NCBI GenBank assembly: GCA_040220235.1
Contig: JAVJTO010000059.1
From: Coleofasciculus sp. B1-GNL1-01
Lineage (GTDB): Bacteria; Cyanobacteriota; Cyanobacteriia; Cyanobacteriales; Coleofasciculaceae
Length of the DNA: 64,000 bases
Reading direction: 5' to 3' (one strand)
Part shown: positions 25,478 to 44,080 of the stretch, in pieces
Position numbering within the stretch: the first letter of the stretch is position 1
How the letters are laid out: the number at the start of each line of letters is the position of its first letter
Position numbers and translations under genes: made by a program
Notes under the pieces: generated by a model
The model's database searches: none
What the model saw: only the letters and a program-made list of their open reading frames with translations
What the model was told of the DNA's origin: nothing

Positions 25478-25762
25478 TCGATAGTGTATCCCATCCGTAG
25501 GGGCGCAAGGCATTGCGCCCTTTATTTAATGGCGTCTTTGACCCCAGCTAGTAGTTTAGTCAATCTCAAACCATGCCCAACACGAATAAGCCGTGATGCA
25601 TTTAAATTGGGTATTAGTGGCGAGCAAGATGTTCGCACTACAGCGATTTCGTCATTATTATCCAGATTTCATTCTCATCATGGGAAAAAATTTAACAAAA
25701 TGTCTGCGAAGATATATATTTATGTGATACTTGCATGACAAAACTCCAAGTTGAGCAATACT

Positions 25763-27241
25763 ATGAGTTCTCGAATAGGCGTGGCTTTGAGCCTGTTAAC
25801 AAGTGTGAGTTTTTTGGCTGACCCGACCCTAGTTGCAGCTCAGGAGGAGAAGTTTAGCTCGCCTCCAGCCGTGATAGCAAAGCGGGGAGAAGGGGAGAAT
25901 GCTAAACCAATCATTGTTGCCGAGTTAGTTGAACAACTGCGTACCGCCGATGTTGGCAAACGTCGGGAAATTATTCAACAACTTAGTGATACCCAACAAG
26001 ATATTGTTCCAGCATTGCTCAGTGCAATGGACGATCCTGATCCTCTGGTTAAAAGTGGTGTAGCAGAAGCATTAGGCAATCTCACTGATGATGCTGCACC
26101 AGCAGTTCCTAGATTGATTGAGATGATGAATGATGGACGTCGGGCGATCGTACCCATGCCATCAAGTCCTCGATATCCCAGTCAAAGTATTTTTATTGCT
26201 CCTGTTCCTACTCTTCGTACTCGTCTTCCTCTTACTCCCGCTCCTATTCGTCTTCCTGCTCGTCGTCCTCCTGCTCGTCCTCTTCCTTTTCCTCCTATTG
26301 CTTCTCCTCCTCCTCGTCTTACTACAACAACAGAGGAGGAGACGGATAACGAACGACGCCTTCCACCTACCCCGCCTGGAAACCCCGAAAACCGACTGCG
26401 GATTACAGCAATCATCGCGCTGGGAAAAATTGGTTTGCCAGCCAGATCATTAGCGACACCTCCCTTAACCGAAGCCTTGCAAGACCCTGATCCGTGGGTC
26501 AAGCTGAATGCAACATGGGCGCTCTCCCAAATCGGAGCTTCTGTCCCCCTTCTATCTCATTGGTTAGAAGCTTTACAGCATTCTGATCCTAACTTGCGTC
26601 GCAGTGCAGCAACAGTTTTTGAAGATTCCGGATCACTGCTACCTAAAATCTTAGGAGCGGAAGCGGATAATAACACGGCGAGGTCTTTAGTTACCGTACT
26701 TAACGATGACGATTCCCTGGTTCGCAGTGCTGCCGAAAAAGCATTAAACTTGTTGGGGACAGATGCATTACCCGGCTTAATCGAAGCGTTGAAAGCACCA
26801 GAGCCAATTGTCCGCTTGCAAGCAGCAGAACTGTTGGGAAATCTAGGAGAATCAGCACAGTCGGCGGTTCCTGACCTGTTGCCACTACTGAAGGATACAG
26901 GGCGTTATGTTCCACCCTCCTCGAATGGATTATTCACTGCACTACCCCTTTTTTCTAATCGAGTTCCACCCAGTCCGCAATACATTTCTGTTCCTGCTAA
27001 CCCTCAAAAATTGGTGCGAGTCAATGCCGCGATTGCCTTGGGCAAGCTAGGCGATCGCCCTGATCCTTGCTCCACATCACAGCCGCGATCGCACTCTTTC
27101 CCAAATTCAATGGTTATCCCTCCATTAAAGTCCCGCCTCACCCACCCTACTCTTTTAGATATGGCGTATTTGCCAGGATTTAGTTATTTAATGTTACGCG
27201 GGCAAACAACTGAGTCCCAGGTCATGTACGGTTATAGATGA
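25763..27241 (+). CDS. Secreted HEAT-repeat protein, probably 3'-truncated
   Basis: Signal peptide; repeated AL.D.D..VR..AA..LG units; HEAT pattern stops at the HIP1 site at 27051. Confidence 0.75.
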   Translation: MSSRIGVALSLLTSVSFLADPTLVAAQEEKFSSPPAVIAKRGEGENAKPIIVAELVEQLRTADVGKRREIIQQLSDTQQDIVPALLSAMDDPDPLVKSGVAEALGNLTDDAAPAVPRLIEMMNDGRRAIVPMPSSPRYPSQSIFIAPVPTLRTRLPLTPAPIRLPARRPPARPLPFPPIASPPPRLTTTTEEETDNERRLPPTPPGNPENRLRITAIIALGKIGLPARSLATPPLTEALQDPDPWVKLNATWALSQIGASVPLLSHWLEALQHSDPNLRRSAATVFEDSGSLLPKILGAEADNNTARSLVTVLNDDDSLVRSAAEKALNLLGTDALPGLIEALKAPEPIVRLQAAELLGNLGESAQSAVPDLLPLLKDTGRYVPPSSNGLFTALPLFSNRVPPSPQYISVPANPQKLVRVNAAIALGKLGDRPDPCSTSQPRSHSFPNSMVIPPLKSRLTHPTLLDMAYLPGFSYLMLRGQTTESQVMYGYR

Positions 27242-29103: not shown

Positions 29104-29410
29104 CTGGATGCGATGGCTTTTTATCCCAGGTTGAGCGATCGCGAAATTACTGGGAAGTCCCCCTTGTCCCTACTGTTCTAGAGGGTCTATAGGAGCGCAC
29201 ATTTTCCCATGGTAAAAAATTACCTCAAACAACAAAAAAAGTCAATGACTACGGGATTTAAATCATCGAGGCAATATAGTCAGGATATAATCCTATCCGG
29301 TTGAACCTTCATCGGTGGATCTGTTGTCACATAACTAAACCTTTTCGATTTATCCGCGCTTACAATAACGGAATATTCATGCATCTGAGAAATCTAGTTA
29401 AACTGAGTTC

Positions 29411-30751
29411 ATGTGGCAGCGGCTCATTTCCATTAAAGGCGAAGATACATCGCTCTGGCAGCGATTGACAAAAAATTTTTCTATCAGCTTGGGTGGATCG
29501 GTGGCTACGATATGCATCAGGTTGCTACAGACTGCTCTTTTGAGCAAATCTTTAGCGATCTCTGACTACGGAAAAGTGCTGATTGTCATTCACCTGTTTA
29601 GCTTCTTGGAAAATTTTTTGGGTGTACGTGTAAATGATATAATATACAGGTTTTATCCTCAGTTCCGTCAGCATCAGGATACCAGTGCCTTAGGGGGACT
29701 GCTTTTTCTCTGCCTCGCTCTGAGCCTAGTCGTTGGTTTCGCGATCGCAGGTGGAATATTTATTCTATCTCCATGGATTGCCCAACACTTCTACGCAGAT
29801 GCTGATCTGGCTTTGCCTTTTCGTATCTATGCTAGTACAGCTTTGATTGCCGCTTTTAGCGGATTTTACACTTCGATCCTCAGGCTGCATGACGATTTCG
29901 CCGCTATTGTCATTCCCCAAACTCTAGGTGCTGCAATGATGCTTGCGGTGTTAGGTATTTATTTGTATAGTACAGACAACTATCGCCTGGAATTTGTGGT
30001 AACTGCTTGTGCATTGGGTGTCTTCATCCAGACAGTGCTTCCTTTCGTTAAAGCCATGGGGGTTGTTCGTCCCTACCTATTCTCAATCTCCCCCATGACA
30101 CTTTTCCGTGCCTTGCAACCCTATCGCCGTGAACTAGTCTCGACGCTTTTTCAAACTAACTTGATTGGATATCTCAAACTGGCATCGGACTCGGGTGGTC
30201 TTTTTCTACTGGGAATTTTGGCATCACCCCAGCAGGTAGCCCTTTATGGTATCGCTCAACAGTTGACCAAACCGTTATTGATACTCCAAAACAATATTCA
30301 AACGGCGATCACACCCGAAGTGACCTCACTTTTAGCAAAAGGGAAGGTTGAACAACTCTATAGGTTGGTCAAGGGTTTTGTCTCCTTAGCACTAATCATA
30401 GGCGGTATAGCTGTGATATTTGCTCTTTTACTAAGTCAGTCTGTTATTCTGTGGATTACCCAGCCCCAATACTTAGAAGCACTTCCTACGTTTTCTGTTC
30501 TGATCATTGCTGTATATCTCACTTGTATATCGTTAATTTTTTATCCCCTTGCAGTAAGTCTTGACCAATTGCAAAAACGCAACCTGGTAGTCGCGATGAA
30601 ATTGCTGTATCTGGGGGTTGCTGTTAGTATAGGTTTGAATGCTGTTCGTCTTAGTTTTGTGCAACTAATTGGCGCATTAAGCACGAGATTACTGGTTGAT
30701 ATCCCCTTACTCATAAGGTTAAGAAAAATGACCAAAATTTCTCATAATTAG
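29411..30751 (+). CDS. Wzx-type polysaccharide flippase
   Basis: About 12 TM segments; L...DYG and VALYGIA motifs; first gene of the GT cluster. Confidence 0.85.
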   Translation: MWQRLISIKGEDTSLWQRLTKNFSISLGGSVATICIRLLQTALLSKSLAISDYGKVLIVIHLFSFLENFLGVRVNDIIYRFYPQFRQHQDTSALGGLLFLCLALSLVVGFAIAGGIFILSPWIAQHFYADADLALPFRIYASTALIAAFSGFYTSILRLHDDFAAIVIPQTLGAAMMLAVLGIYLYSTDNYRLEFVVTACALGVFIQTVLPFVKAMGVVRPYLFSISPMTLFRALQPYRRELVSTLFQTNLIGYLKLASDSGGLFLLGILASPQQVALYGIAQQLTKPLLILQNNIQTAITPEVTSLLAKGKVEQLYRLVKGFVSLALIIGGIAVIFALLLSQSVILWITQPQYLEALPTFSVLIIAVYLTCISLIFYPLAVSLDQLQKRNLVVAMKLLYLGVAVSIGLNAVRLSFVQLIGALSTRLLVDIPLLIRLRKMTKISHN

Positions 30752-30777
30752 ATTTTTAAACTTAAACAATTTAACTT

Positions 30778-31647
30778 ATGGTTTTAGATAAAATAGCTCT
30801 CAAATACTTAACGTTGCAAAGACGGTTGGCAATAAGGAAAATGAATAATGATACCGATAAACCTATTCAATTAATAAATGAGTACCTAAACCTAACTACA
30901 AACAACCCTGAATATATCAATCAAGTTGTATTAGAGGTTTTAGAACATTCAACTAAAGAGTTGAGTAATAACTTAATTTATAAATCAGACTATAACGATT
31001 TCAAAAAGGAAATAAACACAAAATTAAAAATATTCACAAACAAACCTTATCAGCTAGGAGCTATAGACATAGAGATAGATGCAATAGCTCATTCTCTGGC
31101 TCAATTCGAGCAACCAGATGTTCTTGAAATCGGAGTGGCTAATGGATATTCATCAGCATTTTTATACTATGTATTGGACAAAATTGGTGGAAGTATAACA
31201 TCCCTTGACTTGCCTCGTTTTTCTTCTTCCTTATCTCGACCTAGGGACTGGATTCGTACAGGCTTAGCCAGTAAAGGAAAAATTAAGAACACCGGTACTC
31301 TGGGGGATCTCAATCCAGGAGGAGTCATTCCAGCGGAAAAGTATGGGGGTTGGCTGATACCGATGCACCTGCGGACAAGTGTCAAGAATACGACAATTTA
31401 TGGTGATGCTTTGATAATTCTGAAAAATTTACCTGGAGAGCGATTTGATTTTGCCGTTCTAGATGCCATGAAAGGCTATGAGTCGCGGATGAAAATCATG
31501 GAAATGATTTGGGAGCGTTTGCGTGCAAATAGTCTAGCTTTTGTTGATGGTTATTGGGTTAATTCCGCTTTTGAAGATTTTTGTAACTTACATCATTTAC
31601 CTTCATGCAAATTGGGGCGTGTTGGTGTTTTTGTAAAAACGATTTAA
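30778..31647 (+). CDS. Class I SAM-dependent methyltransferase
   Basis: VLEIGVANGYSS, SLDLP, FDFAVLDA. Confidence 0.8.
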   Translation: MVLDKIALKYLTLQRRLAIRKMNNDTDKPIQLINEYLNLTTNNPEYINQVVLEVLEHSTKELSNNLIYKSDYNDFKKEINTKLKIFTNKPYQLGAIDIEIDAIAHSLAQFEQPDVLEIGVANGYSSAFLYYVLDKIGGSITSLDLPRFSSSLSRPRDWIRTGLASKGKIKNTGTLGDLNPGGVIPAEKYGGWLIPMHLRTSVKNTTIYGDALIILKNLPGERFDFAVLDAMKGYESRMKIMEMIWERLRANSLAFVDGYWVNSAFEDFCNLHHLPSCKLGRVGVFVKTI

Positions 31648-31680
31648 TTAAAAATATATTTATAAAAGGAGGATATAAAC

Positions 31681-33129
31681 ATGAAAATGCTAGTTGTTGG
31701 TATTGATGGGGGCGATCAAAAAATTTTAAAATCAATGAATATGCCAAGTTTAAAGGCGATTTTAAATGAGCAAATATGTTTAGAACTAGAAGAAGATTTA
31801 TGGAGTCGAGGTTGGGCTGAGATTTTGAGTGGTATACATGGAAGAGAAACGGGCGCATTCTATTCTAAGCCTAAACTGGATGGTTCTCATGACTTTACCA
31901 AAAGTTTTAGCACAAACGATTACAATAATAACGATTTAATAGTACCATTATGGACGAAGCTGTTAAAGTTTGGTCACAAAGTAGGTTTTATGAATGTGCC
32001 AACAACAATGCCAGCCCCAGATGTAGACGGTTTTTTCATTGCTGGGGCTAGTGGTGGTTCTAAGGTGAGTGGTGCTTCTAAGATTCCCGCAGGTGTATGT
32101 TTTCCTCCAGAAAGTTTGGATGATTTAATCCAACATCAATATATATTAGATACACGATTTATATCATCTGGGATTCGAGACGTAGAAACCTTTTTCAATC
32201 GTCTTGCCGCCATGCAGACAAATAGAACGAATGCCTTCATACAATTATCCCAAAAATACCAGCCTGAATTTGGTTTTCTCGCCTATAGAGCCACTACTGT
32301 AGTTCAATATATAGTCATGAGTGAGATTGAATCCCTGATGGCAAACCCAGATTCACCTCAGACCAAAATTCAAAAAAGAATACATGAACTCTACCAAGAT
32401 CTCGATCAGTGCATCTACAATTTACTAGACCAACTACAGCCAGAGTATATTATAGTGGTATCTGATCACGGCGCTTCTCCTCGCTTTGCAACAGTGAATA
32501 TGAATGTATTTCTACAAGAAATGGATATGCAGAAACCGCTGCCTAGTTCAGTTAAAACGACTCGCCGCCTGGTGAAACAGTTGGCTCAGCTAGTTCCTCG
32601 TCAAGTTCGGCGAAATATTACTCAGTCTGTTCCCCAAGTGCGAAGTATTTCCCAGCCAGCCATTGATTGGAGCCAAACACGAGCGTTTGGAGCTCGCTAC
32701 GTTAGCGGAGTTTATATCAATGATAGGGAAAGATTTGCAGGTACAGTGGGTGACAGCGAGGTTAATCAAGTCACTCAACAGATAATCGAAGCGTTCAACG
32801 CAACTGAAGCAGCGACAAAGCATAGACTCTATGCACGTCCCTATCGCCAAAATTATCGCTCAGCTAAGTTTGCCGACTTACTTCCCGACATCTGGATTGA
32901 CCATCCTGATTCAATTTTCTTTGAAGAAAAAGGTCAATTTGTGGAAACCAACGAAGACTATAAACCCATCGAAACTCTCCGTCAAGTAACTCGCGACCAA
33001 TATACAGGAGCTAAGGGAAGACATCCGCTTCTGTGTATTAATCCAGAACTTTACCGCTATGTGGAAGACGGCGATCCTTGGGATCTAACCCTAGTCTATA
33101 AAATAATCGAGAGAGCAATGGCGCAGTGA
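31681..33129 (+). CDS. Alkaline-phosphatase-superfamily protein (nucleotide pyrophosphatase/phosphodiesterase-like)
   Basis: VVGIDG, W..I.SG, NVPTT.P, VVSDHG; AGGAGG RBS. Confidence 0.82.
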   Translation: MKMLVVGIDGGDQKILKSMNMPSLKAILNEQICLELEEDLWSRGWAEILSGIHGRETGAFYSKPKLDGSHDFTKSFSTNDYNNNDLIVPLWTKLLKFGHKVGFMNVPTTMPAPDVDGFFIAGASGGSKVSGASKIPAGVCFPPESLDDLIQHQYILDTRFISSGIRDVETFFNRLAAMQTNRTNAFIQLSQKYQPEFGFLAYRATTVVQYIVMSEIESLMANPDSPQTKIQKRIHELYQDLDQCIYNLLDQLQPEYIIVVSDHGASPRFATVNMNVFLQEMDMQKPLPSSVKTTRRLVKQLAQLVPRQVRRNITQSVPQVRSISQPAIDWSQTRAFGARYVSGVYINDRERFAGTVGDSEVNQVTQQIIEAFNATEAATKHRLYARPYRQNYRSAKFADLLPDIWIDHPDSIFFEEKGQFVETNEDYKPIETLRQVTRDQYTGAKGRHPLLCINPELYRYVEDGDPWDLTLVYKIIERAMAQ

Positions 33130-34268
33130 AAATAGGCATTCTTACGTTTCATAGATCAGTCAATGATGGTGCAGTCTTACAGGCGTATTGTCTTCAGCAA
33201 TTATTACAGGCGCAGTTTCCCCAAGCCAGCGTCGAACTGATCGATTATCGTCCTTGGACGTTAGAGAGAATTGAGTACCGTAAACTTTTTAGGCGACGCT
33301 TTCCATTCATCAATCGGTATAAATGGGCTCAACGCAGGAGTTTGCAGGAATTTTTGCACCAATACTGCACTTTATCACTAGCATCTTGTACGACCAATAC
33401 TCTACAAAAGGTACAGAATTTTATTCTAAACCAAGAGTATGATGGGATTGTGGTGGGAAGTGATGTGGTCTGGCAAATTCGAGATCAGGGGCTAATTCCG
33501 CCAGTTCCTAATATTTTTTGGCTAACGGGCTTACAGGGGATGAAAAAATTAGCCTTTGCTGTGTCTGCTGATAAATCCGAAAAATTATCTTGGCAGCTAA
33601 AACATAATCAGGAACAGTTACTCTCAAGTCTGGAGGATTTCCATTGGATATCTGTCAGAGACGAGGCAACACGACAGATGCTTTTGAAGCTAGGGTTGGC
33701 GGAAACACAAGTTTCATATATGCCTGATCCAACAATTTTGTGGGACTTTTCATCTATTGTTGATACACCTCAAGAATTTGAACAATTTCCGGGACAATTA
33801 GCTGGTGTTGCTGTTGGCTCAAGTTTTATCAGGAAAAAGCTAACTCAGATAATCCTGGCAAAAGGTTATCACGTCATCAATCTCTTAGGAGCTAGAGTCA
33901 AAGGGCAAATCTCACTGCCTCTTCACTATTCTTTAAATCAGAGATTGGGGATTTATTCGTTACTTGACTTGATGGTGACCGATCGATTTCATGGTAGTAT
34001 CTTTACCCTTAAACTGGGACATGCTCCTTTAATTTTTCTGGAAGTTGCCGAAAAGTATCCTGATTGTTATAGCAAAGGTCGCGATTTACTTCGCCGGATC
34101 GGGGGTGAAGCAATGGTTTGGCGAACTGAGAGTCGAGATATTGGCGATAATCTAGATTATTATTTAGCTAGATGGCATGAATTATTCCCTGATATTAAAA
34201 GCGGCTTGGGTGCGATTAGCCAGTCAAATTTCAAAGATCTTGAGCAAATCAGCAAAATTTTAGATTGA
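33126..34268 (+). CDS. Polysaccharide pyruvyl transferase
   Basis: IGILTFH..N.GA.LQAY, VGSDVVW, ISVRD, PDPT, TDRFHG. Confidence 0.9.
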   Translation: MKIGILTFHRSVNDGAVLQAYCLQQLLQAQFPQASVELIDYRPWTLERIEYRKLFRRRFPFINRYKWAQRRSLQEFLHQYCTLSLASCTTNTLQKVQNFILNQEYDGIVVGSDVVWQIRDQGLIPPVPNIFWLTGLQGMKKLAFAVSADKSEKLSWQLKHNQEQLLSSLEDFHWISVRDEATRQMLLKLGLAETQVSYMPDPTILWDFSSIVDTPQEFEQFPGQLAGVAVGSSFIRKKLTQIILAKGYHVINLLGARVKGQISLPLHYSLNQRLGIYSLLDLMVTDRFHGSIFTLKLGHAPLIFLEVAEKYPDCYSKGRDLLRRIGGEAMVWRTESRDIGDNLDYYLARWHELFPDIKSGLGAISQSNFKDLEQISKILD

Positions 34269-34284
34269 GGTTATTTCAATTTAT

Positions 34285-34992
34285 ATGGATAATTTTTTTA
34301 ATTTAGTCGTTCCTGATTGTGCTGTTAAATATATTCTGTTACAACGCACAGAATTACAGATATATTTTAGGATTTTAAAAAAATTTAGGTTCCTGTACTA
34401 TACATATTTTATTCCTATAGAAGCCTATTTAATGCGTCAACAAATTAAGGAAAAGTTTGCTTTAAAATTATTAGAAGAGTATCAAATTATGAAGCCATAC
34501 CTACCTACCCAGGCATTAAGAATAGTAGACATCGGTAGTGGGATCGCTGGCATTGATGTTTTTCTTTACCATCATTATCGCCATTCTATACCGAAACTAG
34601 ATTTGTTTTTATTAGATCAAACAGAAACGAATAAAAATATTTACTATGGTTTCCATCAGCAAGCGTCTTATTATAATTCACTTGAGGTAGCAAAATTAAT
34701 GCTGATGTCAAATAAAATTAACGAAAAAAACATTCGTCTCATCAGCGTAAATTCTTACTATGAGATTGAGTGCAGCAGTGCTGATTTAATCATTTCGCTT
34801 ATTTCTTGGGGATATCATTACCCTGTTTCTACCTATCTTGAACAAGTGTATCAATGGTTAAAACCGGGTGGAATACTCATCTTAGATGTAAGAAAAGGTT
34901 CAGACGGAGAAAACGAACTAAAACAAAAATTCCCAGAAAAATACTTAATTATGCAGGACAAAAAAAGGCGTAGATTATTACTCATTAAATAA
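34285..34992 (+). CDS. Class I SAM-dependent methyltransferase
   Basis: IVDIGSGIAG, SWGYHYP, LKPGG. Confidence 0.8.
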   Translation: MDNFFNLVVPDCAVKYILLQRTELQIYFRILKKFRFLYYTYFIPIEAYLMRQQIKEKFALKLLEEYQIMKPYLPTQALRIVDIGSGIAGIDVFLYHHYRHSIPKLDLFLLDQTETNKNIYYGFHQQASYYNSLEVAKLMLMSNKINEKNIRLISVNSYYEIECSSADLIISLISWGYHYPVSTYLEQVYQWLKPGGILILDVRKGSDGENELKQKFPEKYLIMQDKKRRRLLLIK

Positions 34993-35000
34993 TAAAAATT

Positions 35001-36158
35001 ATGAAGAAGCAGGGATCGGGGCTTGTGCAGACGAGTGACGGGCAAGATGAAGTTTTTTTTCATCAAGGGAAAATAGCCATCTTTCTCCCTTCTCTCCGGG
35101 GTGGTGGCGTGGAAAGAGCCATGTTGACCTTAGCAAAGGGTTTAGCCGAACGAGGCTTAAATATAGATTTAGTCTTAGCTCAAGCGGAAGGACCTTATCT
35201 GGCTCAAGTGCCACCAGAGTTAAATATAGTCAACCTTCAGGCTCCGCGAGTGCTGTCTAGCCTTCCTAACTTGATTCACTACTTACGGCAAGAACGCCCA
35301 ATAGTGCTTCTTTCTGCAATGGATCATGCCAATATAGTGGCTCTTTGGGCAAGATATTTATCTGGAGTATCTAAAAGATTGGTCGTAACCACACACAATA
35401 CCCTGTCGCTTTCCATCAAGAATAGTTCTAACCGCACAAGTCAATTGATGCCCTTCTTAATACGCCACTTCTATCCGTGGGCTGATGAAATTGTTGCCGT
35501 ATCGAAAGGAGTAGCGGATGACTTAACATTGACTACAGGCTTGCCTCGTGAAAAGATACAGGTAATTTATAACCCAGTCGTAACGCCGGACATGTTGAAG
35601 GAAGCCCAAACCCCTTTGGCTCATCCTTGGTTTGCATCTGGAGAGCCTCCAGTCATTCTGGCAGTAGGGAGACTGACAAAGCAAAAAGATTTTCCCACCT
35701 TGATCAGAGCCTTTTCGTTGGTGCAACAGCAGTACAAAGCGCGGCTCATGATTTTGGGTGAAGGGGAAGAACGCCCCCTATTAAACCGATTGATCCAAGA
35801 GCTGGGCTTGGAGAATGGAGTCATTATGCCAGGGTTTGTGAGCAACCCTTATGCTTATATGTCCAGAGCAGCCGTATTTGTCCTGTCTTCAGCTTGGGAA
35901 GGGTTAGGTATAGTTTTAATTGAAGCCTTAGCTGTAGGAACTCCTGTAGTCTCTACGAATTGCCAAAGTGGACCATCAGAGATTTTAGATAATGGTAAGT
36001 ACGGGCGATTAATACCAGTTGGAGATATACAGGCAATGGCAAAAGCCATTTTAAATACTTTACAAAATCTCCCACCGCCTGATTTTTTGCAAAATAGAGC
36101 CAATGAATTTTCTTTAGAAAATAGTTTGAGGAAATATTTTGAATTAATCAAAAATTAG
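35001..36158 (+). CDS. GT4 glycosyltransferase
   Basis: GGGVER, IYNP, GRL..QKDF, EG.G.VLIEA. Confidence 0.92.
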   Translation: MKKQGSGLVQTSDGQDEVFFHQGKIAIFLPSLRGGGVERAMLTLAKGLAERGLNIDLVLAQAEGPYLAQVPPELNIVNLQAPRVLSSLPNLIHYLRQERPIVLLSAMDHANIVALWARYLSGVSKRLVVTTHNTLSLSIKNSSNRTSQLMPFLIRHFYPWADEIVAVSKGVADDLTLTTGLPREKIQVIYNPVVTPDMLKEAQTPLAHPWFASGEPPVILAVGRLTKQKDFPTLIRAFSLVQQQYKARLMILGEGEERPLLNRLIQELGLENGVIMPGFVSNPYAYMSRAAVFVLSSAWEGLGIVLIEALAVGTPVVSTNCQSGPSEILDNGKYGRLIPVGDIQAMAKAILNTLQNLPPPDFLQNRANEFSLENSLRKYFELIKN

Positions 36159-36250
36159 TTTATTTTTACGCTAGAGACAATTAGGTTTTTCTGTCAATCA
36201 TATAAATAAATAATTTACCGACAATTGGTCTATCTTATTTATCAGTATCA

Positions 36251-38842
36251 ATGTTAGACACAATGGGATGCTTCAGCTTAATTTTTGTAGCCATTACCAC
36301 AGTATTCATTTCATACAGATTCACCAAAATTAAAGTCCCGTTACTTGTTGGATTTTTGACTCGTGCATCACTTGCATTGGTTATCGTATACTTGTCGTTT
36401 CAGGGGAACAACTTTTTGGAAGACGATGGATTTCAACGGTTAGCTGAATTTTGGTCAATTTCAGGTTTTCCAGGTGTTTTAGAGTATTTCCGAACCGGAG
36501 CATTTATGTATGCTTGGTTCATGGCTACTTTATATATAATTACTGATAGCACCAGTTCTTTAATGATTCAGGCAATTAATGTATTGCTGGGAACTTTATT
36601 AATTCTTAATGTCTACCTGATTACTAAAATTGTTTGGAGTGAACGTCCTGCCATCTGGGCAGCATGGGTTTGTGCCTTATTTCCTACTTTATCACTTTAT
36701 TCGGCATGGAGAGTTCGAGAAGCTCTTTTAACTTACTTGTTCACATTAAGTATCTACCACTTTTTAGTCTGGCTAAAGCGGGGTAAGGCTCAATCATTTG
36801 TTATCGGTTTCTCTGTCATGGTTCTGGCTTCAGTGCTACATACAGCCTTCTTTGCTGGAATCGTTCTTTACGCTGGCTTTCCCATTTTTTATTCTGCCAA
36901 AGCTTTTCTCAAAAAGAGGGGAGGTCGTCTTATCGGCAATACCCTGATTGCTTTAATTGCGATAGGAGGTCTGGGATTAGTGATATGGTCAGGAGTAGCA
37001 TTTGGGAAAATACAGGATTTAATTCAGTCGGGAGATTTAGCTATAATAGCTCACAAACAAGAATCTAGAGCCTTAGCTGGTCGGGCAGGTTATCTGCCCG
37101 ATTTAGTTATTCGCTCACCCACAGATTTTTTCTGGCAAGTTCCCCTGCGACTTGTTTATTTAATTCTTACTCCTTTTCCCTGGATGGTGAGTAATACAAA
37201 AGATATTATTGGGCTAATTGATGTTGGGATTTATACCTGCTTTATTTTATTAATTGTTAAAAATGGCAATCGATTAAAACGAAGCAATCTGGCTTGGTGT
37301 GTACTCATTTTCTGTTTAGGCATAGCTTGTGTATTTGCTTTGGGAACGTCTAACTACGGGACAGCAATGCGTCATCGCTCTAAGGTTGCGCCTTTATTGA
37401 TTGTATTAAGTGCTGGTTTTATATCTCAAAAAGAGGCAACCCAGCAGCCGTCTCCCTACAATAATTTAACTTCTTGGTCAATGACCCCAGGATTCTATGT
37501 TCAGGATCAACTCCCCTCTGTTTCTACGCAAGGTAACTACAGTGGGGTTCAGACTAATCTTCCTTCTCAACAGACAGCTTATCAGGTAGTCTTAACCCAG
37601 ATCCATCAGTTGCTTACCCCTGCGGTCTTTAACCAACACGCTTACTATTACTCACTAGGAGGAAAAGGACGAATTCTAACCCTGCCTCTGATGACGGCAG
37701 CCGGATTATTTTTATTATGGCGAAATGTTTATTCCGTACAGAAACTGGTTAAGTTTTTAGCCCAAAACGATTTACTCTGGTGTCGAGAATTTAGCCTATC
37801 TCAAAGAGAACGTATAAACCGAATTTTATTGATGCCTGCTGAACTATTGCAGCGTGTATTTAAAGATATATCGCCTCAGTTAATCCAGCGATGCTATAAA
37901 CGAAAAAAACGTCCTTTACCGCCGACAATTTCTCTGGGTCGTCAGCATTTTGCACGAATTTGGTCAGTTGATCGCTCTACCTTAGAATTCTTGGGATCTA
38001 AACTCAATACTACTCAGCCTCGGTCTAATATGCAATCATCAGAAACTATCTGCACGGTGGTCGATCTACCCACTCGAATACCCATTAAAGTATGGTTTTC
38101 TCCCACAATTAAAGTTGACGACACCAATCTTACTCAAAAATTGCTCAATCTAGTTCCAGCAAAAACCTTACTGATTCTTGATCGAGGTTTTAATCATGTC
38201 CAGGTTTTGAGTGGTTTAATGGCGAAACAGATAAATTTTATTACTAGGCTTAGATCTCATAAATTATTTCAGGTCGAACAAGTTTTGACTTCAACCTATC
38301 GCGTGAAAGATCAAATCATTTCTATTAAAAGTAGTCAAACGCTGACGTCTCACCTCAAACTGCGCCTAGTACAAATCCGCCATAACCAGCATTGGTATAC
38401 TTTTCTCACGTCTGTATTAGACCCGACTATCTTACCCCCCTATGTTGTCGCTGATCTTCATCGACGAAGATGGCGACTGGAGAATGTGTTGCAAATCGTT
38501 CAACAGCTATTAGGATTGAATTACTTGTGGACAGGTACAATGAATGGTATACAAGTACAAATCTGGGCGAGTTGGTTGTTTTACTCAGTACTAGCGGACT
38601 TAGGAGATGCCATTGCTAATGAATTAGGGATTCCGTTTGAGCGTATTTCTCTGAAAAAAGTTTTTTGGGGACTTAACCGCTTTAACCAAGCTTATGCCGA
38701 AGGTAAGACCATTAACCCCGTTGTATATTTTGTGACTGATATCCATCCAGATTTCACTGTTGTTAAGCCGATGAGCCAGCCGACTCCCATTATTGATTTA
38801 TCTCCTTACCCTACGAGCTTTACGAGACGACAATCTTCTTGA
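36251..38842 (+). CDS. Wzy-like multi-pass membrane protein fused in frame to a degenerate IS4-family transposase
   Basis: aa ~1-392: ~10 TM segments with SNYGTAMRHR. aa ~445-855: LLTPA..RILTLPLM, IWSVD, LILDRGF, FITRL, LTSVLDP..LPPYVVADL..RW..E, LGL.YLWTG. Confidence 0.85.
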   Translation: MLDTMGCFSLIFVAITTVFISYRFTKIKVPLLVGFLTRASLALVIVYLSFQGNNFLEDDGFQRLAEFWSISGFPGVLEYFRTGAFMYAWFMATLYIITDSTSSLMIQAINVLLGTLLILNVYLITKIVWSERPAIWAAWVCALFPTLSLYSAWRVREALLTYLFTLSIYHFLVWLKRGKAQSFVIGFSVMVLASVLHTAFFAGIVLYAGFPIFYSAKAFLKKRGGRLIGNTLIALIAIGGLGLVIWSGVAFGKIQDLIQSGDLAIIAHKQESRALAGRAGYLPDLVIRSPTDFFWQVPLRLVYLILTPFPWMVSNTKDIIGLIDVGIYTCFILLIVKNGNRLKRSNLAWCVLIFCLGIACVFALGTSNYGTAMRHRSKVAPLLIVLSAGFISQKEATQQPSPYNNLTSWSMTPGFYVQDQLPSVSTQGNYSGVQTNLPSQQTAYQVVLTQIHQLLTPAVFNQHAYYYSLGGKGRILTLPLMTAAGLFLLWRNVYSVQKLVKFLAQNDLLWCREFSLSQRERINRILLMPAELLQRVFKDISPQLIQRCYKRKKRPLPPTISLGRQHFARIWSVDRSTLEFLGSKLNTTQPRSNMQSSETICTVVDLPTRIPIKVWFSPTIKVDDTNLTQKLLNLVPAKTLLILDRGFNHVQVLSGLMAKQINFITRLRSHKLFQVEQVLTSTYRVKDQIISIKSSQTLTSHLKLRLVQIRHNQHWYTFLTSVLDPTILPPYVVADLHRRRWRLENVLQIVQQLLGLNYLWTGTMNGIQVQIWASWLFYSVLADLGDAIANELGIPFERISLKKVFWGLNRFNQAYAEGKTINPVVYFVTDIHPDFTVVKPMSQPTPIIDLSPYPTSFTRRQSS

Positions 38843-38877
38843 ATGATCACCTTTACCCTTTATTTTAAAATGAACAG

Positions 38878-39711
38878 ATGAATTCATCCAACCTCAGTGT
38901 AGTCACAACCGTCTATAATGGTGAAATCTACTTCAATCGCGCTGTGCCTAGTATTTTACAGCAAACTTATACCAATTTTGAATTTATTATTGCCGATGAT
39001 GGCTCAACTGACTGTACCGCCCAACAACTTAGAGAACTCACTCAAAACGATCAACGTGTGCGTGTCCTGAGTCCTGGACGATTAGGACGCAGCCAAGCCC
39101 TTAACTATGCAATTGAACAGACTCAAGCAGACTATATTGCTATTCAAGACTTTGATGATATCAGTTATCCTGAACGTTTACGTTTACAGGTCGAGTTTTT
39201 AGAGGCGCATCCTGATGTCGGGTTAGTCGCTTGTCACTACGTTTTAGTAGATGATAATCGCCAAGAACAGTATATCCGAATGCCCGCTACAGAACATCAG
39301 CAACTGGTTAGGACAATGGCTAAGTGTGTTCCCTTTGCTCATACCCTGGTTACCTATAGAAGAAAAGCCTGGATGCAAGCTGGAGGATATCCAGATGTAG
39401 ATAGTATGGTTGATCTTCACTTATGGATTGCCTTTGTCCGTCTGGGTTGGCGACTCGCAACTATTCCTCAAGTCCTCGGTGAACATTGGGTACATCCCAA
39501 CAGTTTTTGGCATCAACAGTTTAACTATATAAAACAGCAACAAAAATTAGCCCAAATCCAATGGCAGGCTATTCAAGACCTTAGTTTACCATTATGGATG
39601 GGAGTGTATCCTCTTGGTCGATACTTATATTCCTATATGCCCAAAACCCTCAAGCGATATGTTCGACGTACTTTGGCTCAATCTAAAGAAGAAGATATGG
39701 CAAAGCGATAG
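38878..39711 (+). CDS. GT2 glycosyltransferase
   Basis: YNGE, DDGSTD, DFDD..PERL. Confidence 0.92.
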   Translation: MNSSNLSVVTTVYNGEIYFNRAVPSILQQTYTNFEFIIADDGSTDCTAQQLRELTQNDQRVRVLSPGRLGRSQALNYAIEQTQADYIAIQDFDDISYPERLRLQVEFLEAHPDVGLVACHYVLVDDNRQEQYIRMPATEHQQLVRTMAKCVPFAHTLVTYRRKAWMQAGGYPDVDSMVDLHLWIAFVRLGWRLATIPQVLGEHWVHPNSFWHQQFNYIKQQQKLAQIQWQAIQDLSLPLWMGVYPLGRYLYSYMPKTLKRYVRRTLAQSKEEDMAKR

Positions 39712-39753
39712 AGTGCTATTGACCCGATTAATCCACGAATTACTGCTGCAAAA

Positions 39754-40473
39754 ATGCCAGATATTATTCCTCACCTGAACTACGAACTCAAAACGTATCA
39801 GTCTCAGCGCATTCATCAGGCGATGCTTCAGGCAATATGTTCCTTAGTTCGTCTAGTTTTAGAACAAACAAATCAGCCGTCTATGAGTATCCTAGATGTA
39901 GGATGTGGACGGGGAGAACTATTACAATCTCTTGTTCAAATTCCCCAGGTTTCAGCTCAAGGCATTGATCTCGATCCTACCTGTATTGAACTATCCCGTC
40001 AATTTGCATCTTGTCGTGTAGGTTCAGTTGAAGCGTTAGATCAATATTACTCTCCGGACAGCTTCGATCTCGTCATTGCCTCTCATGTTCTAGAACACGT
40101 CCCTAACCCCACTCTCGCACTTTTACAGCTAGCTTCAGTGAGTCGGAATTGGGTATTAATTGCTCTTCCTAATCCTGTTAGACCCTCTAGACTGCTTCAA
40201 TACTTAAAGGGTAAACTTTATGCCGATCATCCGACTCATTGTCAAGTTTGGGACCCTGGTCATCTCGCGAACTTTATTGAGACATTTGGTCATTTAAAAG
40301 TTTATCAGTGGCAGCCCGATATTGTAACTGTCATTCCCGGACAATTGTTGTCTGTGCCATTATTACGTTTTATTCTAAAACCTTTCAGTATCGCAGAAAC
40401 GACACTGTTAACTGGGTTATTCCCTTTATTTTCATCAAGTCTAATTGTGCTAGCAACCAAACACCGTGATTAG
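39754..40473 (+). CDS. Class I SAM-dependent methyltransferase
   Basis: ILDVGCGRG, FDLV..HVLEHV. Confidence 0.88.
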   Translation: MPDIIPHLNYELKTYQSQRIHQAMLQAICSLVRLVLEQTNQPSMSILDVGCGRGELLQSLVQIPQVSAQGIDLDPTCIELSRQFASCRVGSVEALDQYYSPDSFDLVIASHVLEHVPNPTLALLQLASVSRNWVLIALPNPVRPSRLLQYLKGKLYADHPTHCQVWDPGHLANFIETFGHLKVYQWQPDIVTVIPGQLLSVPLLRFILKPFSIAETTLLTGLFPLFSSSLIVLATKHRD

Positions 40474-41611
40474 GGTTAAACAACGAATTTTAATGTTGTC
40501 CACTTGTATGGGACTCGGTGGTGCAGATCAACAGATTTTGTACCTTGTTCGTACTTTACTCAAGCGGGGATACGAGATTCAAATTGTGTCGATGACACCG
40601 TTGGGTGCCATGGGGAAAGAAGCTCAATCAGAGGGTTTACCCATTCAAAGCCTTAATATGCAAAGGGGTGTACCCGACCCCAAAGCAATTTTCAAACTTG
40701 CCAGAATACTACATCAATGGCAGCCTGATATTCTCCACAGTCACATGGTACATGCTAATTTTCTGGCACGGGTGAGTCGGTTATTTTCTCATTTGCCTGT
40801 GCTAGTTTGTACAACATCCAACATTAACGAGGGAGGTCGATGGCGAGAATGCGTCTATCAATTGACTGACTTTCTCTGCGACATCACGACTCAAAAGAGT
40901 CATGCTGGAGCTGAGCGATATGTGAGCATAAAAGCTGTACCAAGAACAAAACTTAGGGTGCTTCCCAACGGCATAGATATTCAAAAATTTAAACCCAATC
41001 GAGAAGCCAAGCAACGCCTACGACAGGAGTTAAGTTTAGAGGAGCAATTTATTGGCTTAGCTGTAGGGCGATTTCGTCCACCCAAGGATTATCCGAATTT
41101 ACTCCAAGCCTTTAGTCGAATTAAAGCAAATTCTATTAATACAGTGTTAACTCTTGTTGGCGAGGGAAGTCTTAAGCCAGAGATGAAAGCATTAGCTAAA
41201 ACTCTTGGCATTCATGAGCAAGTCAAATTTTTGGAACCGAGACGAGATATTCCTGATTTAATGAATATTGCCGATTTCTATATCATGTCTTCGGCGTGGG
41301 AAGGAATGCCAATGGTACTTTTAGAAGCAGCATCGGTTGGACTACCTATTGTGGCGACTGATGTAGGTGGTAATGGGGAAATTGTCTTGGATGGCAAAAA
41401 CGGTTTCTTGGTTCCCCCTCGCCATCCAGACGCTTTAGCGCAAGCGCTGGAACGGATGATGAATTTATCTCCACAAGAGCGTCAACAAATGGGGCAGTTT
41501 AGTCGAAAGCATGTAGAGCTTAATTACAGCATTGAGCGAGTTGTAGATAGGTGGGAAGCACTCTACCAGCAGTTGCTAGACAAAACCAGCTCACAGGATC
41601 AGGGGGTATAG
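40466..41611 (+). CDS. GT4 glycosyltransferase
   Basis: GGA, PNGID, EGMPMVLLEA. Confidence 0.92.
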   Translation: MIRVKQRILMLSTCMGLGGADQQILYLVRTLLKRGYEIQIVSMTPLGAMGKEAQSEGLPIQSLNMQRGVPDPKAIFKLARILHQWQPDILHSHMVHANFLARVSRLFSHLPVLVCTTSNINEGGRWRECVYQLTDFLCDITTQKSHAGAERYVSIKAVPRTKLRVLPNGIDIQKFKPNREAKQRLRQELSLEEQFIGLAVGRFRPPKDYPNLLQAFSRIKANSINTVLTLVGEGSLKPEMKALAKTLGIHEQVKFLEPRRDIPDLMNIADFYIMSSAWEGMPMVLLEAASVGLPIVATDVGGNGEIVLDGKNGFLVPPRHPDALAQALERMMNLSPQERQQMGQFSRKHVELNYSIERVVDRWEALYQQLLDKTSSQDQGV

Positions 41612-41864
41612 CTGGGCGCCCCGAAAAATAATCTATGTTACAGCCAAAATGATATCTGCGAGTCTCAAGGAAAATAATCTTTAGTTAAAATTTTTATCGG
41701 AGCCTGTCAACCGTGAAAACCCCTAGATAGGCTAGTTGAGTAGGGAGATTATTTCCGGAATTTGACTGACGACTTCTGGTGTATCTATCAAATAGTATGA
41801 AGTTGATCAGGCGACTTTTTAATCTTAAAGGCATGTAACGTTCAATCACGAATTATAAATAAAA

Positions 41865-42536
41865 ATGAAAAAAATATTACTTTTTAGTGCTGAAGTGATA
41901 CTTCTTTGCAGTACTGCTGTTCCAGCCCAAGCTACTATACTTAACGTGAGCCAGGGTGGACAGATTATTACTGCCCCCAGTTCCGTCTCCTACAATTTTC
42001 CAGGATATGAACATCCAAATTTCATGCTCGGCTTCTCCGAAAAGCAAAACGTTAAGCTCTCTTCCAATCTCGCCATTGATGGTGGCTTCATCGCCGCAGG
42101 GCAGCTAGTGAGTAGCCACATGATCTTCCTGAATACTCCAGGTTCTCGGCGGTTAGCGTTATCGAATATTAACTGGACTTTTGACAGCACAATTCTGGGC
42201 GTAATGTCGGATGGTAACGGTTTATTAGAAGCAGCGAGTAATACTCTGTTGGGTGTTCCTCATACGTTCTATCCTGGTAGCTTTACGCAACGGGGTTTAG
42301 AATGGAGCCGCCAAGAAAATTACTCTGAAGTTGGTTCTAATGTGTTGATCGTATCAATGAAGACAACTACACCAGGCGACTGGATTAGAGTCGTCACCCA
42401 AGCAAAGCCGATACCTGAACCGACATCTACTTTGGGTTTATTGACAATATCTTTGGTGGCTAAGGCAGTCCTGAAGCGTACACGTAAGCCCAGTGATCTT
42501 ACATCGCTCCCCCAAAACAGTCCTGACATGCGTTAG
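41865..42536 (+). CDS. PEP-CTERM surface protein
   Basis: Signal peptide (AQA); C-terminal IPEPTSTLGLL..LKR. Confidence 0.8.
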   Translation: MKKILLFSAEVILLCSTAVPAQATILNVSQGGQIITAPSSVSYNFPGYEHPNFMLGFSEKQNVKLSSNLAIDGGFIAAGQLVSSHMIFLNTPGSRRLALSNINWTFDSTILGVMSDGNGLLEAASNTLLGVPHTFYPGSFTQRGLEWSRQENYSEVGSNVLIVSMKTTTPGDWIRVVTQAKPIPEPTSTLGLLTISLVAKAVLKRTRKPSDLTSLPQNSPDMR

Positions 42537-42841
42537 CGGCTCATCTTCCTGTGGAGATGAGAATACGACGGTTGAGCAGCTTACCTTATCGGACTAAAAC
42601 TATCCTCCTGTAGATAGAGTTCTTTTTACAAACCCTTATGCCACATTTCGATCATTGAGTCGCAAGACTTGACTAGCCGTCACCCAATCCAAAATACTGA
42701 TGCCTGATGGAGGCAAGCGCTATATACATCACCCAGATAGTTGTATTTCTTCCAAGCTCTTCACCAAACCCAGGCAAATGCTTATACTGGAAGATAACTT
42801 AGCGATGCCATTCACCTATCCATATTAGTAGGATATGTCGT

Positions 42842-44080
42842 GTGAAGTTCAAGCATCGCCCCAAAATTTTGCTGGTCGCTAACACGGGTTGGAATCTTTA
42901 CAACTTCCGCTTACCCTTGGCTCGATTTCTCCGTCTACGAGGAATCGAGGTTATTTTTGTTTCTCCCCCAGATCCCTACGTATACCGACTGCAAGCCGAA
43001 GGATTTCGCTGGATTCCCTTGCGCCTCTGTCGGCGCAGTATCAATCCCCTGGTCGAACTCTTGACTATTGGTCATTTAACCCGGATTTACTGGCAAGAAA
43101 AGCCCGCTGCTGTCCATCACTTTACGCTCAAATGTGTTCTTGTGGGAACGATCGCGGCTAAGCTAAGTGGTACAACTGGGGTGGTGAATGCGATTACGGG
43201 ATTAGGCTACATTTTTAGTAGCAGTGAGTGGAAGGCTCGGATCTTGAAACTCATCTTCATTATCGTCGGTAGATGGGTATTGAGAGCTCGCAGGGCAATG
43301 GTTGTGTTTCAGAATCAGGATGATCGGCAAGTTTTCACCACCCTGAAGCTGACTAATCCCTACCGAACTGTACTGATCAGAAGTTCGGGTATCGATTTGC
43401 AGCGCTTTTCACCGCCGCTTCATCCACCAGATGTTCCGTTGACGCCAGTCGTCCTGCTTGCTGCCCGCCTGATTACAGAAAAAGGTGTTATAGAATACGT
43501 AGAGGCTGCTCATATTCTCAAAGCTCGTGGCGTTCGGGCAACGTTTCAGATCGCGGGTGAGCCAGACTTGGGTAATCCTGCTTCCATTTCTCCGACCACT
43601 TTACAACACTGGCAACGGGAAGGAATCGTTGACCTGCTGGGTCATCTGGAGAACATTGAACAGTTCATTGCTCATTCAACCCTTGTCGTGTTACCTTCCC
43701 ACGGTGGGGAGGGTGTTCCTCGTATTTTACTAGAAGCGGCGGCGATGGAAAAACCCTTGGTCGCCACTGATGTCCCTGGCTGTCGAGAGGCAATTGACCC
43801 AGGGAAAAATGGCGTTTTGGTTCCGGTAAAGAATGCGGCGCGGTTGGCTGATGCGATTGAGATCCTCTTAAACGACGCCAATTTGTGCCAAGCCATGGGA
43901 GTCGCTGGACGAGAAAAAGTCTTGCGAGAGTTTGATGATCGCAGCGTGATTCAAAAAACAGCCAAGGTTTACCAAGCGATAGGTATACCACTACTGCACG
44001 TTCAACAAACTTGTGACTCGAGTTTTCTCAGGGCTGACAAAAGCGGATTGGGTATCGCTCAAACTGGAGAAGAGGGTTGA
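42842..44080 (+). CDS. GT4 glycosyltransferase (CapM-like)
   Basis: NFRLPL, ITGLG, EKGV.EY.EAA, EGVPRILLEA, TDVPGCRE. Confidence 0.92.
   Translation: MKFKHRPKILLVANTGWNLYNFRLPLARFLRLRGIEVIFVSPPDPYVYRLQAEGFRWIPLRLCRRSINPLVELLTIGHLTRIYWQEKPAAVHHFTLKCVLVGTIAAKLSGTTGVVNAITGLGYIFSSSEWKARILKLIFIIVGRWVLRARRAMVVFQNQDDRQVFTTLKLTNPYRTVLIRSSGIDLQRFSPPLHPPDVPLTPVVLLAARLITEKGVIEYVEAAHILKARGVRATFQIAGEPDLGNPASISPTTLQHWQREGIVDLLGHLENIEQFIAHSTLVVLPSHGGEGVPRILLEAAAMEKPLVATDVPGCREAIDPGKNGVLVPVKNAARLADAIEILLNDANLCQAMGVAGREKVLREFDDRSVIQKTAKVYQAIGIPLLHVQQTCDSSFLRADKSGLGIAQTGEEG

Follow-up and report, generated by a model that had tools for sequence, protein, structure and literature searches.

A probably domesticated IS4-family transposase fused to a GT-C membrane protein in a cyanobacterial polysaccharide cassette

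In the window, the 64,000-nucleotide stretch of Coleofasciculus sp. B1-GNL1-01 that we analysed, a single gene in an accessory polysaccharide cassette joins a GT-C membrane glycosyltransferase to an IS4-derived domain (Table 1). Judging from sequence comparison, this domain is very probably a domesticated transposase. A preliminary description of the same DNA had named three results that would speak against domestication, namely near-identical free copies of the element, a neutral dN/dS and frameshifted transposase parts in relatives. Domestication is supported because none of the three occurred: the closest transposase in the same genome was 45% identical and broken, and the best plasmid match to the domain reached 47%; dN/dS was below 1; and no broken orthologue was found among nine genomes of the genus, searched with stop codons read through. 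Since the domain is inherited with the cassette under purifying selection, it would serve either the host or the cassette.

Table 1. Coordinates of the fusion gene, its parts and its surroundings in the window.
Feature	Position	Strand	Basis
Accessory polysaccharide cassette	29356..44014	+	Pfam
Wzx-type flippase	29411..30751	+	PF01943, E 2.2e-10
Fusion gene, 863 aa: GT-C membrane glycosyltransferase + IS4-derived domain	36251..38842	+	Pfam, NF033592, orthologues
Recombination breakpoint in 5' end of fusion gene	36264..36326	+	Comparison of genomes and run contigs
Membrane domain, residues 1–392, GT-CA fold (predicted)	36251..37426	+	Model pLDDT 94; VIA Z 21.2 to Pmt; conservation
Remodelled first outer loop, residues 51–59	36401..36427	+	Alignment, 139 relatives; pLDDT
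True linker, residues about 393–422	37427..37516	+	omega 1.27
IS4-derived domain, residues about 423–863	37517..38839	+	Collinear with free transposases; fold; omega 0.40
D574, first acidic residue of DDE triad	37970..37972	+	14/14 fused, 23/23 free
D644, second acidic residue	38180..38182	+	14/14 fused, 22/23 free
R666	38246..38248	+	14/14 fused, 23/23 free
Altered YREK motif: H737, R740, W741, E744, Q751	38459..38503	+	14 fused rows
Eroded right terminal inverted repeat over stop codon	38838..38855	+	11/18 bases match free-element end
GT2, methyltransferase, GT4 genes	38878..41611	+	Downstream of fusion in all 4 carrier genomes

The single unbroken frame and the start of the next gene 35 nt further on, both noted before, were borne out. 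The fusion is old. In this group of mat-forming cyanobacteria it is intact and syntenic in four of the nine genomes (84–94% identity), and each of the four carriers has a single copy, always at the same locus. The whole frame is present in the separately assembled genomes G004 and G005, G007 holds residues 194–863 in a single frame, and contigs of runs X4, X11 and X13, from three further studies, bridge the junction; hence, the fusion did not arise in assembly. Because protein clusters are built from long intact frames, broken alleles would be under-counted among their members. The orthologues are annotated as 'IS4 family transposase'. A search of proteins of 521–2000 aa found no new long fusion of this transposase lineage among 8000 scored candidates; its six matches were three copies of the present fusion and three IS4-like proteins (571–577 aa) with no membrane domain evident in their sequence. 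Two scans of metagenome contigs and one of viral contigs found no relative, and literature searches, in which subscription journals were poorly covered, showed no description of such a protein among the papers listed. Expression of a separate transposase from a conserved internal start was rejected, because the ATG in the linker reads ATT in G005. A 31-nt direct repeat shared by the linker and the 3' end (74%) was taken as chance.

The cassette comprises, in order, a wzx flippase gene, methyltransferase genes, phosphodiesterase-like and pyruvyltransferase-like genes, a GT4 gene, the fusion, a GT2 gene, a methyltransferase gene, a GT4 gene, a 223-aa ORF and another GT4 gene. It is present in five of the nine genomes and was not found in G001, G002, G003 and G006, whose flanks join; the empty sites differ between genomes. 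The cassette borders showed no IS4-type ends and no evident target duplication, and mobilisation of the cassette by the fused enzyme finds no support there. At the breakpoint in the 5' end of the fusion gene, two different upstream half-cassettes are joined to the same gene, and in G004 wzx and GT4 genes lie upstream of it. The same cassette slot is occupied in G008 and G016 by unfused members of the membrane family.

In line with the preliminary description, residues 1–392 are hydrophobic and were modelled as an all-helical membrane domain, with about 11 membrane helices on our reading of the predicted model. In that model, the membrane half is a GT-CA fold of the PMT/ArnT/OST type. VIA aligned it to Pmt over 325 residues with an rmsd of 3.9, the first 20 VIA ranks were all GT-C proteins or GPI-transamidase subunits, and Foldseek agreed, with matches that include Pmt, AglB and ArnT. 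The earlier label 'Wzy-like' therefore holds in part: clustering with wzx and glycosyltransferase genes, with no other polymerase candidate in the window, fits a polymerase role, but the fold is GT-CA, so that the polymerase role rests on gene context. PF04932 (Wzy_C) was not matched at E <= 0.01, and the locus lies outside the six Wzy_C matches of the genome. Neither WaaL nor RodA was among the 50 matches listed per fold search of the membrane half, an absence that does not amount to exclusion.

The membrane half keeps the family residues R38, R156, E157, H197, R300, N368, G370, R374, H375, R376 and K378, and its omega was 0.14 (residues 194–392). Its first outer loop is remodelled. The family Asp of this loop, present in 138 of 139 relatives, aligns to E57, which adjoins D58 and D59; all 12 fused proteins examined retain this acidic triplet, and residues 51–57 were modelled with pLDDT <50. 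Because the family Asp aligns to Glu in the fusion, the membrane half's own activity is not certain.

The surrounding PMT_2-like bacterial family is unnamed and comprises 1348 clusters at E <= 1e-30. NCBIfam gave no family for the window protein and weak matches in 3 of 15 members of a small alignment, and a sequence search of solved structures returned nothing useful for either half of the fusion. Most family members have no tail. Of the 150 best family representatives, only the fusion has a transposase tail; the four other proteins longer than 700 aa each have a GT4 domain at the C-terminus. We found no unfused parent of the membrane half; the tail-less proteins of G008 and G016 are not its sister group, and the fused membrane half sits on a long stem (1.44 versus a median end branch of 0.79 in a FastTree run). 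P0017, a free relative of the membrane half, had no plasmid match.

The linker is shorter than the ~50 residues first proposed, since residues 423–443 align with a decayed transposase N-terminus. Its omega is not different from 1, which suggests nearly neutral amino acids, and its frame is kept; G004, X1 and X4 share a 6-nt in-frame deletion here. The tail itself is, as previously suggested, an almost complete IS4-type transposase. Residues 452–782 match the NCBIfam IS4 transposase model NF033592, barely above its cut-off (115.3 versus 115 bits), residues 600–773 match Pfam DDE_Tnp_1 (E 1.4e-12), and one residue is inserted and none deleted relative to free transposases over residues 444–855. 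Tn5 transposase was the top fold match of the domain (Foldseek E 3.2e-8; VIA Z 15.3, rmsd 4.8 over 277 residues). A homodimer prediction for the domain scored 0.00, from which no verdict was drawn.

Residues were counted in an alignment of 14 fused and 23 free rows. The DDE residues D574, D644 and E744 (at 37970, 38180 and 38480), already described as kept, are present in all fused rows. R666 is presumably the counterpart of Tn5 R210, judging from its spacing and from Tn5 numbering with D188. The Tyr of the YREK motif, present in 23 of 23 free copies, is His in 14 of 14 fused rows, as had been reported from the window; the accompanying change of Lys to Gln is not fixed, as it occurs in two fused rows while 12 keep Lys. 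The remaining motif positions read R (9) or K (5), W (14) and E (14). The reported change of DG to DR proved less distinctive: fused copies have R, H or Y directly after D574, but this position is variable among free ones as well (G 14, C 4, S 2, A 2, N 1). All fused rows have lost 24 of the 98 residues that are invariant in free copies, including the YREK Tyr and 13 of 40 polar ones. These losses are not enriched among Arg and Lys (5/15 versus 10/43 for hydrophobic residues, p 0.50) and occur in every region; the idea that basic DNA-contact residues were lost selectively is thus not supported.

Selection on the transposase-derived part was estimated from the DNA of only four genomes, three of them close kin. 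Omega was 0.40 for residues 423–863 (p 2.7e-9) and 0.19 for residues 701–863 (p 2.3e-8), equal to that of neighbouring enzymes, whereas for residues 423–570 it was 0.69 and not different from 1 (p 0.17). Hence, constraint was tightest in the C-terminal third and weakest in the N-terminal third. Free copies, with an omega of 0.02–0.18, are also tightest in the C-terminal third (0.02–0.09 versus 0.06–0.18), and the regional pattern of the fused domain is in part inherited. In every region the fused domain was about 2–12 times less constrained than two free clades. The domain has a dS of 0.25 between G000 and G005, compared with 0.15–0.33 for five other genes in or beside the cassette. The view that the frame reflects selection rather than decay is further supported by neutral simulation, in which a mean of 18.6 stops was expected and none of 3000 runs was stop-free, while the fused domain has no stop. 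Among indels in four runs from four studies, one lies in the ORF and is in frame; indels of 4–5 nt occur at three places within 30 nt after the stop codon.

Of the element's two ends, the left one is gone and the right one largely so. The preliminary description saw no terminal inverted repeats, which is correct for the left end, where none was recognisable in fused copies, but an eroded remnant of the right end lies on the stop codon. Free relatives have 18-bp terminal inverted repeats, of which 9–12 bases match across the fused copies; of 4594 other stop codons in the genome, 1.0% scored at least as high as the remnant (0.3–7.4% for the three orthologues). Between 37300 and 39000 we found only short repeats with no evident significance as a target-site duplication, for which about 10 bp is expected, and the left border could not be placed. 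The fused copies form one clade on a stem of 1.37 substitutions per site (support 100/100), and the nearest full-length free copies are 44–48% identical. About 55% of the transposase residues have changed, and its length is kept. Retention because of a promoter supplied by the element was rejected: promoter-like sites occur at chance level (7 versus 8.2), and synonymous sites diverge like those of neighbouring genes, which also contradicts it.

These features suggest the following history and role. An IS4-family element of a cyanobacterial lineage may have landed at the 3' end of a GT-CA-fold glycosyltransferase gene, after which the two frames would have been joined by read-through; an unfused parent allele of the fusion was not found. 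From fold and context, the membrane half is most likely an enzyme that polymerises or transfers the lipid-linked repeat units supplied by Wzx. Its last membrane helix should end in the cytoplasm, given the predicted topology and the GT4 domains fused at the same place in relatives. The transposase half could then be a folded, non-catalytic assembly domain in the cytoplasm, which either makes the enzyme oligomerise or docks and regulates the soluble transferases of the cassette. We consider this whole mechanism, with a non-transposing assembly domain, the most likely one, although we propose it tentatively. It agrees with the signs of immobility, namely a single copy, eroded ends, the Tyr-to-His change, the loss of invariant residues and the long stem.

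Alternatively, the domain might still bind nucleic acid or metal and perhaps nick DNA or RNA, which is possible though rather unlikely. The protein would then be tethered to the membrane as a sensor, a DNA tether or a nuclease and be coupled to the synthesis of surface polysaccharide, acting for instance against DNA that enters at the polysaccharide receptor. All 14 fused rows retain D574, D644, E744, R666 and W741, and 12 of them K751; the predicted core folds like Tn5 transposase, and three fused rows have a net charge (K+R minus D+E) of +24 to +28 versus +10 to +21 in six free rows. The kept residues and a domain at least as basic as free transposases count against a pure scaffold, which would need neither. 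Moreover, according to the accessible part of PMC2566895, Tn5 Y319A is nearly dead for strand transfer, yet still forms complexes, nicks and makes hairpins and fails at later steps, so that the change of Tyr to His need not kill cleavage. Conversely, the triad would be retained by chance with a probability of 0.11–0.20, given the number of other invariant residues kept, and together with R666 and W741 with a probability of 0.05–0.07. The lost polar residues, the Lys at position 740 in 5 of 14 fused rows and the nearly neutral N-terminal third also argue against this explanation. That the transposase was exapted specifically as a metal-dependent nucleic-acid-binding or nicking module, tethered to the membrane and coupled to a surface-polysaccharide enzyme, seems unlikely on the sequence evidence. 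If true, it would tie envelope synthesis to the sensing of DNA, whether phage or mobile DNA coming in or the cassette of the cell itself, and a prokaryote would have domesticated a full-length DDE transposase for a job outside recombination or CRISPR.

It is quite unlikely that the tail is useless in itself and persists because the membrane enzyme now needs it to be stable, with the result that unfolding or truncating mutations are purged. The weaker constraint in every region, with no targeted pattern, is consistent with such dependence, as is the long stem of the membrane half, which co-adaptation would give. However, a stop codon in the linker would remove the tail cleanly. The four-genome tree should have produced about three of these (probability of none 0.05); including the stem, with its distance set to a lower bound of 0.6, raises the expectation to at least 8.5 (P 2e-4). 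In addition, the last third is as constrained as the neighbouring enzymes, and most members of the membrane family work without a tail.

By analogy with Tn5 Inh, which inhibits by dimerising with the transposase (accessible part of PMC4265352), the domain might form inactive heterodimers with related IS4 transposases as a membrane-anchored inhibitor. In the genome there are 126 end motifs of the IS4 type and 23 left-right pairs, mostly spaced by 88–388 bp, and the C-terminal part is the most constrained. Yet the closest genomic transposase is broken and diverged, free copies of the lineage are rare or partial in the genus, and the tie to a polysaccharide enzyme would be unexplained, which makes this reading very unlikely. 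A transposase that still moves itself or the cassette is extremely improbable: the intact triad and the patchy presence of the cassette are outweighed by the single copy, the missing left and eroded right ends, the 24 lost invariant residues, the cassette borders and the differing empty sites. A recent chance insertion in frame that decays neutrally, or an assembly artefact, is largely refuted by the intact frame in four of nine genomes, the overall omega, the absence of stops and the 1.37 stem, even though the linker and residues 423–570 do not differ from neutrality and broken alleles are under-counted among protein clusters.

The steps of this history can be traced from active free relatives with intact ends to a fixed copy with an eroded end, a long burst of change and subsequent purifying selection, and the fusion offers a testable model of how new bacterial domain architectures arise from IS elements. 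It also carries a warning, as the label 'IS4 family transposase' may conceal the key membrane enzyme of a polysaccharide cluster.

Eukaryotes are well known to have domesticated whole DDE transposases, whereas bacterial insertion sequences are generally thought to be purged fast once immobile. Domesticated DDE transposases include RAG1, PiggyMac, PGBD5, SETMAR and the Harbinger-derived ALP1, and the prokaryotic cases are Cas1 and TnpB/IscB derivatives. The present fusion shares with them immobility, vertical inheritance and purifying selection on a transposase fold. They are, however, soluble nucleic-acid enzymes, regulators or chromatin partners, and we know of no domesticated transposase tethered to a membrane biosynthetic enzyme. 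The accessible part of PMC8700633 contained no prokaryotic domestication cases.

The membrane half has the same fold as Pmt/GT39, ArnT/GT83 and OST/GT66 (Z 18–21), with conserved outer-face residues, but it lacks a solved relative by sequence and its first outer loop is remodelled. Wzy proteins of clan GT-C3 (GT122–GT124) are described as sharing a long loop close to the N-terminus and a conserved set of Arg, Arg, Asp and His (PMC10920833); the membrane family has such residues and lies with wzx, which would make it a candidate relative.

The transposase half shares its DDE triad, the R/E and mostly the K of YREK, its length and its fold with cyanobacterial IS4-family elements (NF033592). Its free relatives have ends that agree with the patterns given for the IS231/ISH8 subgroup in Table 1 of PMC2266710. 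A complete YREK motif is a criterion of the IS4 family (PMC2266710), and the fused copies depart from it in having His for Tyr. They further differ from free copies in lying behind a membrane enzyme as a single copy, in their missing left and eroded right ends, in the lost invariant residues and in a higher omega. Tn5 transposase and Inh (PDB 1MUH, 1MM8, 1B7E) are the top structural matches of the C-terminal domain, at 11–13% identity. Unlike the fused domain, Inh is a product of the element itself with no host enzyme attached, but it sets a precedent for a derivative that does not transpose and works through dimerisation (accessible part of PMC4265352).

The uninterrupted 863-codon frame of the preliminary description was recovered with the frame open throughout, among consecutive polysaccharide genes, and the three acidic DDE residues lie where it had placed them. 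The fusion is real and its range narrow, and the transposase half has in all likelihood been domesticated, for which the support is good. The gene went through fusion, loss of mobility and accelerated change, and then came under purifying selection. The second half barely passes the NCBIfam model for IS4 transposases, at 115.3 bits where the cut-off is 115, and the first half has only a weak Pfam match (PMT_2, E 0.008).

The preliminary description had proposed searching other genomes for the same fusion, and it recurs in four of the nine genomes of the genus: the window's own (G000), G004 (94% identity to the window's fusion), G005 (84%) and G007 (94% and 91%), where the copy is interrupted solely by a contig end. 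Three protein clusters with 9, 2 and 5 members hold the fusion, which public annotation simply calls transposase. The gene is also covered by contigs from four other studies, of which three span the junction. Outside the genus, matches from 52 family genomes and 401 phylum genomes included no long fused frame, and no other membrane fusion of the transposase lineage was found among longer proteins (8000 candidates scored). The gene start differs among carriers, with 863 aa in the window, 888 aa in the relative P0009 and 884–886 aa with an unrelated N-terminus in others. An in-frame TAA lies 16 codons upstream of the window's ATG, and hence the window product may be without a short N-terminal segment.

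The fused transposase is no longer a mobile element. Its free relatives are widespread in cyanobacteria, at times with several equal-scoring copies per genome (four in G120), and have 18-bp inverted repeats that frequently overlap the stop codon and match the patterns which Table 1 of PMC2266710 gives for IS231/ISH8. A near-identical free copy, named earlier as an argument against domestication, was not found: full-length free copies share 30–48% identity with the fused domain, the best in 66 plasmid records 47%, and that of the window's genome, a broken copy, 45%. The claim that terminal inverted repeats are absent holds for the left end, of which nothing is recognisable in the fused copies. 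It does not hold for the right end, where a remnant on the stop codon keeps 9–12 of 18 bases; 0.3–7.4% of 4594 other stops score as well. Across the whole G000 genome we counted 126 IS4-type end motifs, with 23 left-right pairs among them (e.g., C9:5346-5522, C93:521-2329 and C113:11694-13775 on its contigs). Of these pairs, 21 are spaced 88–388 bp and resemble a MITE family; one of the others surrounds the broken free relative, and the last a frame of 476 aa, IS50-like by eye.

The tree comprised 38 rows, 24 of them free and 14 fused (13 distinct). All fused rows group together with 100/100 support inside the free copies, whose end branches reach at most 0.59; the stem of the fused group measures 1.37 substitutions per site. 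Of the 98 positions that do not vary among 23 free rows (L024, a free transposase with an aberrant N-terminus, was omitted), every fused row retains 57 and every one has lost 24, whereas the other 17 differ between fused rows. The fused domain is nevertheless collinear with the free ones, with one inserted residue and zero deletions over residues 444–855. Every fused row has His in place of the YREK Tyr, as had been noted for the window. The Tn5 mutant Y319A can still nick and make hairpins while barely performing strand transfer (PMC2566895). Strand transfer is probably lost in the fused transposase. The AlphaFold model of the domain (pLDDT 71) has Tn5 transposase as its best structural match, and partly reflects free transposases, which dominate its 17 input sequences.

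The transposase half is under selection. In a GY94 codon model of four genomes, three of them close kin, omega was 0.14 for membrane residues 194–392, 1.27 for the linker and 0.40 for residues 423–863 (p 2.7e-9 versus 1), so that the dN/dS suggested earlier as a check lies below neutrality. From the N- to the C-terminal third of the IS4-derived domain omega fell from 0.69 (not significant) to 0.39 and 0.19; pairwise Nei-Gojobori estimates (0.23–0.37, upper bounds <0.6) are consistent with this. Two clades of free relatives gave 0.02–0.18 over the same regions, and hence the fused domain is relaxed; this, like the close kinship of three genomes, speaks against taking the selection as strongly demonstrated. 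The synonymous distance between G000 and G005 (0.25, versus 0.15–0.33 for nearby genes) fits inheritance in place. Neutral simulation (star tree, summed length 0.325, substitutions only) gave 18.6 stops on average, and every one of the 3000 runs contained at least one. In four sequencing runs the sole indel within the frame was a 6-base deletion, and 4–5-base indels occurred at three places immediately 3' of the stop; the 40 of 179 rows of substitutions covered leave room for a stop allele.

The cassette is accessory and was not found in G001, G002, G003 or G006, where its flanks are joined. Its composition is mosaic as well. The wzx-led upstream half shared by G004, G005 and G007 is unrelated to the window's, which is 94–95% identical to that of G008. 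This difference amounts to a serotype-like swap of one half of the cluster. Since different upstream halves join the same fusion, the fusion was kept through the exchange of its upstream neighbours. Downstream of it comes, without exception, one set of genes: GT2, methyltransferase and GT4. In G008 this downstream part contains a sulfotransferase and a family member that is not fused (34% identity).

Features of the fusion locus and its surroundings
Feature	Position	Remark
Lipoxygenase-like protein, 654 aa	23513-25477	N-terminal transthyretin-like segment
HEAT-repeat-like protein	25751-27241	proline-rich insert; last ~60 residues seem out of register by eye; possibly a frameshift near 27070
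Short repeat, cassette left edge	29179-29251	many matches in genus genomes; second copy within empty sites of G002 and G006
Cassette	~29356-44014	
Upstream half-cassette	29356-36130	
Variable start of the fusion gene	36190-36326	
Fusion	36251-38842	863 codons
Breakpoint of the upstream exchange	near 36264-36326	
223-aa ORF	41865-42536	without Pfam match; signal-like start and PEP-CTERM-like end by eye; swapped for unrelated 233-aa ORF in G005

The membrane half is a member of a large family that has no name and counts 1348 clusters at E <= 1e-30; within the order it is rare, with 4 of 301 genomes carrying it. This half had been called Wzy-like. Its model (pLDDT 94) adopts the GT-CA fold known from Pmt, AglB and ArnT (Z 19.7–21.2), and a polymerase role is suggested by wzx and the absence of another candidate in the cassette. 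Family-invariant residues are nearly all retained except in the first outer loop, where the Asp of 138 of 139 relatives aligns to E57, adjoining D58 and D59, a triplet fixed among fused proteins. This half likewise sits on a long stem, and the unfused proteins of G008 and G016 are not its sister group. Among the best 150 family representatives, 145 are shorter than 530 aa; the five long ones are the window's fusion and P0099, P0112, P0169 and P0171, which carry a C-terminal GT4 glycosyltransferase and would unite repeat-unit synthesis and membrane transfer in a single chain. Read from model and hydropathy, conserved residues occupy one face and Lys/Arg-rich loops the opposite, and the last membrane helix runs from the conserved to the basic face. 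As such enzymes have conserved residues at the outer face (PMC10920833), the tail is predicted to lie in the cytoplasm, which the GT4 fusions suggest as well.

Any function of the tail is inferred. We tentatively favour a non-catalytic assembly or regulatory domain: in relatives a soluble transferase occupies the corresponding position, constraint is weakest in the N-terminal, end-binding third, and the capacity for strand transfer has probably gone. Residual nucleic-acid activity is a serious, though less likely, rival: the DDE triad, R666 and W741 are all kept, but such retention has chance odds of 0.05–0.20. Entrenchment of the tail seems improbable, and an Inh-like trap (compare PMC4265352) very much so. 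Passive retention is unlikely, as the linker would be expected to have acquired a harmless stop by now (probability of none 0.05 on the four-genome tree, 2e-4 with the stem at its lower bound).

No description of this architecture appeared among the literature listed in the searches. Transposase domestication itself is a known kind of event. The membrane half has its fold in common with Pmt, AglB and ArnT, and the polymerases of clan GT-C3 are a plausible candidate for its known counterpart.
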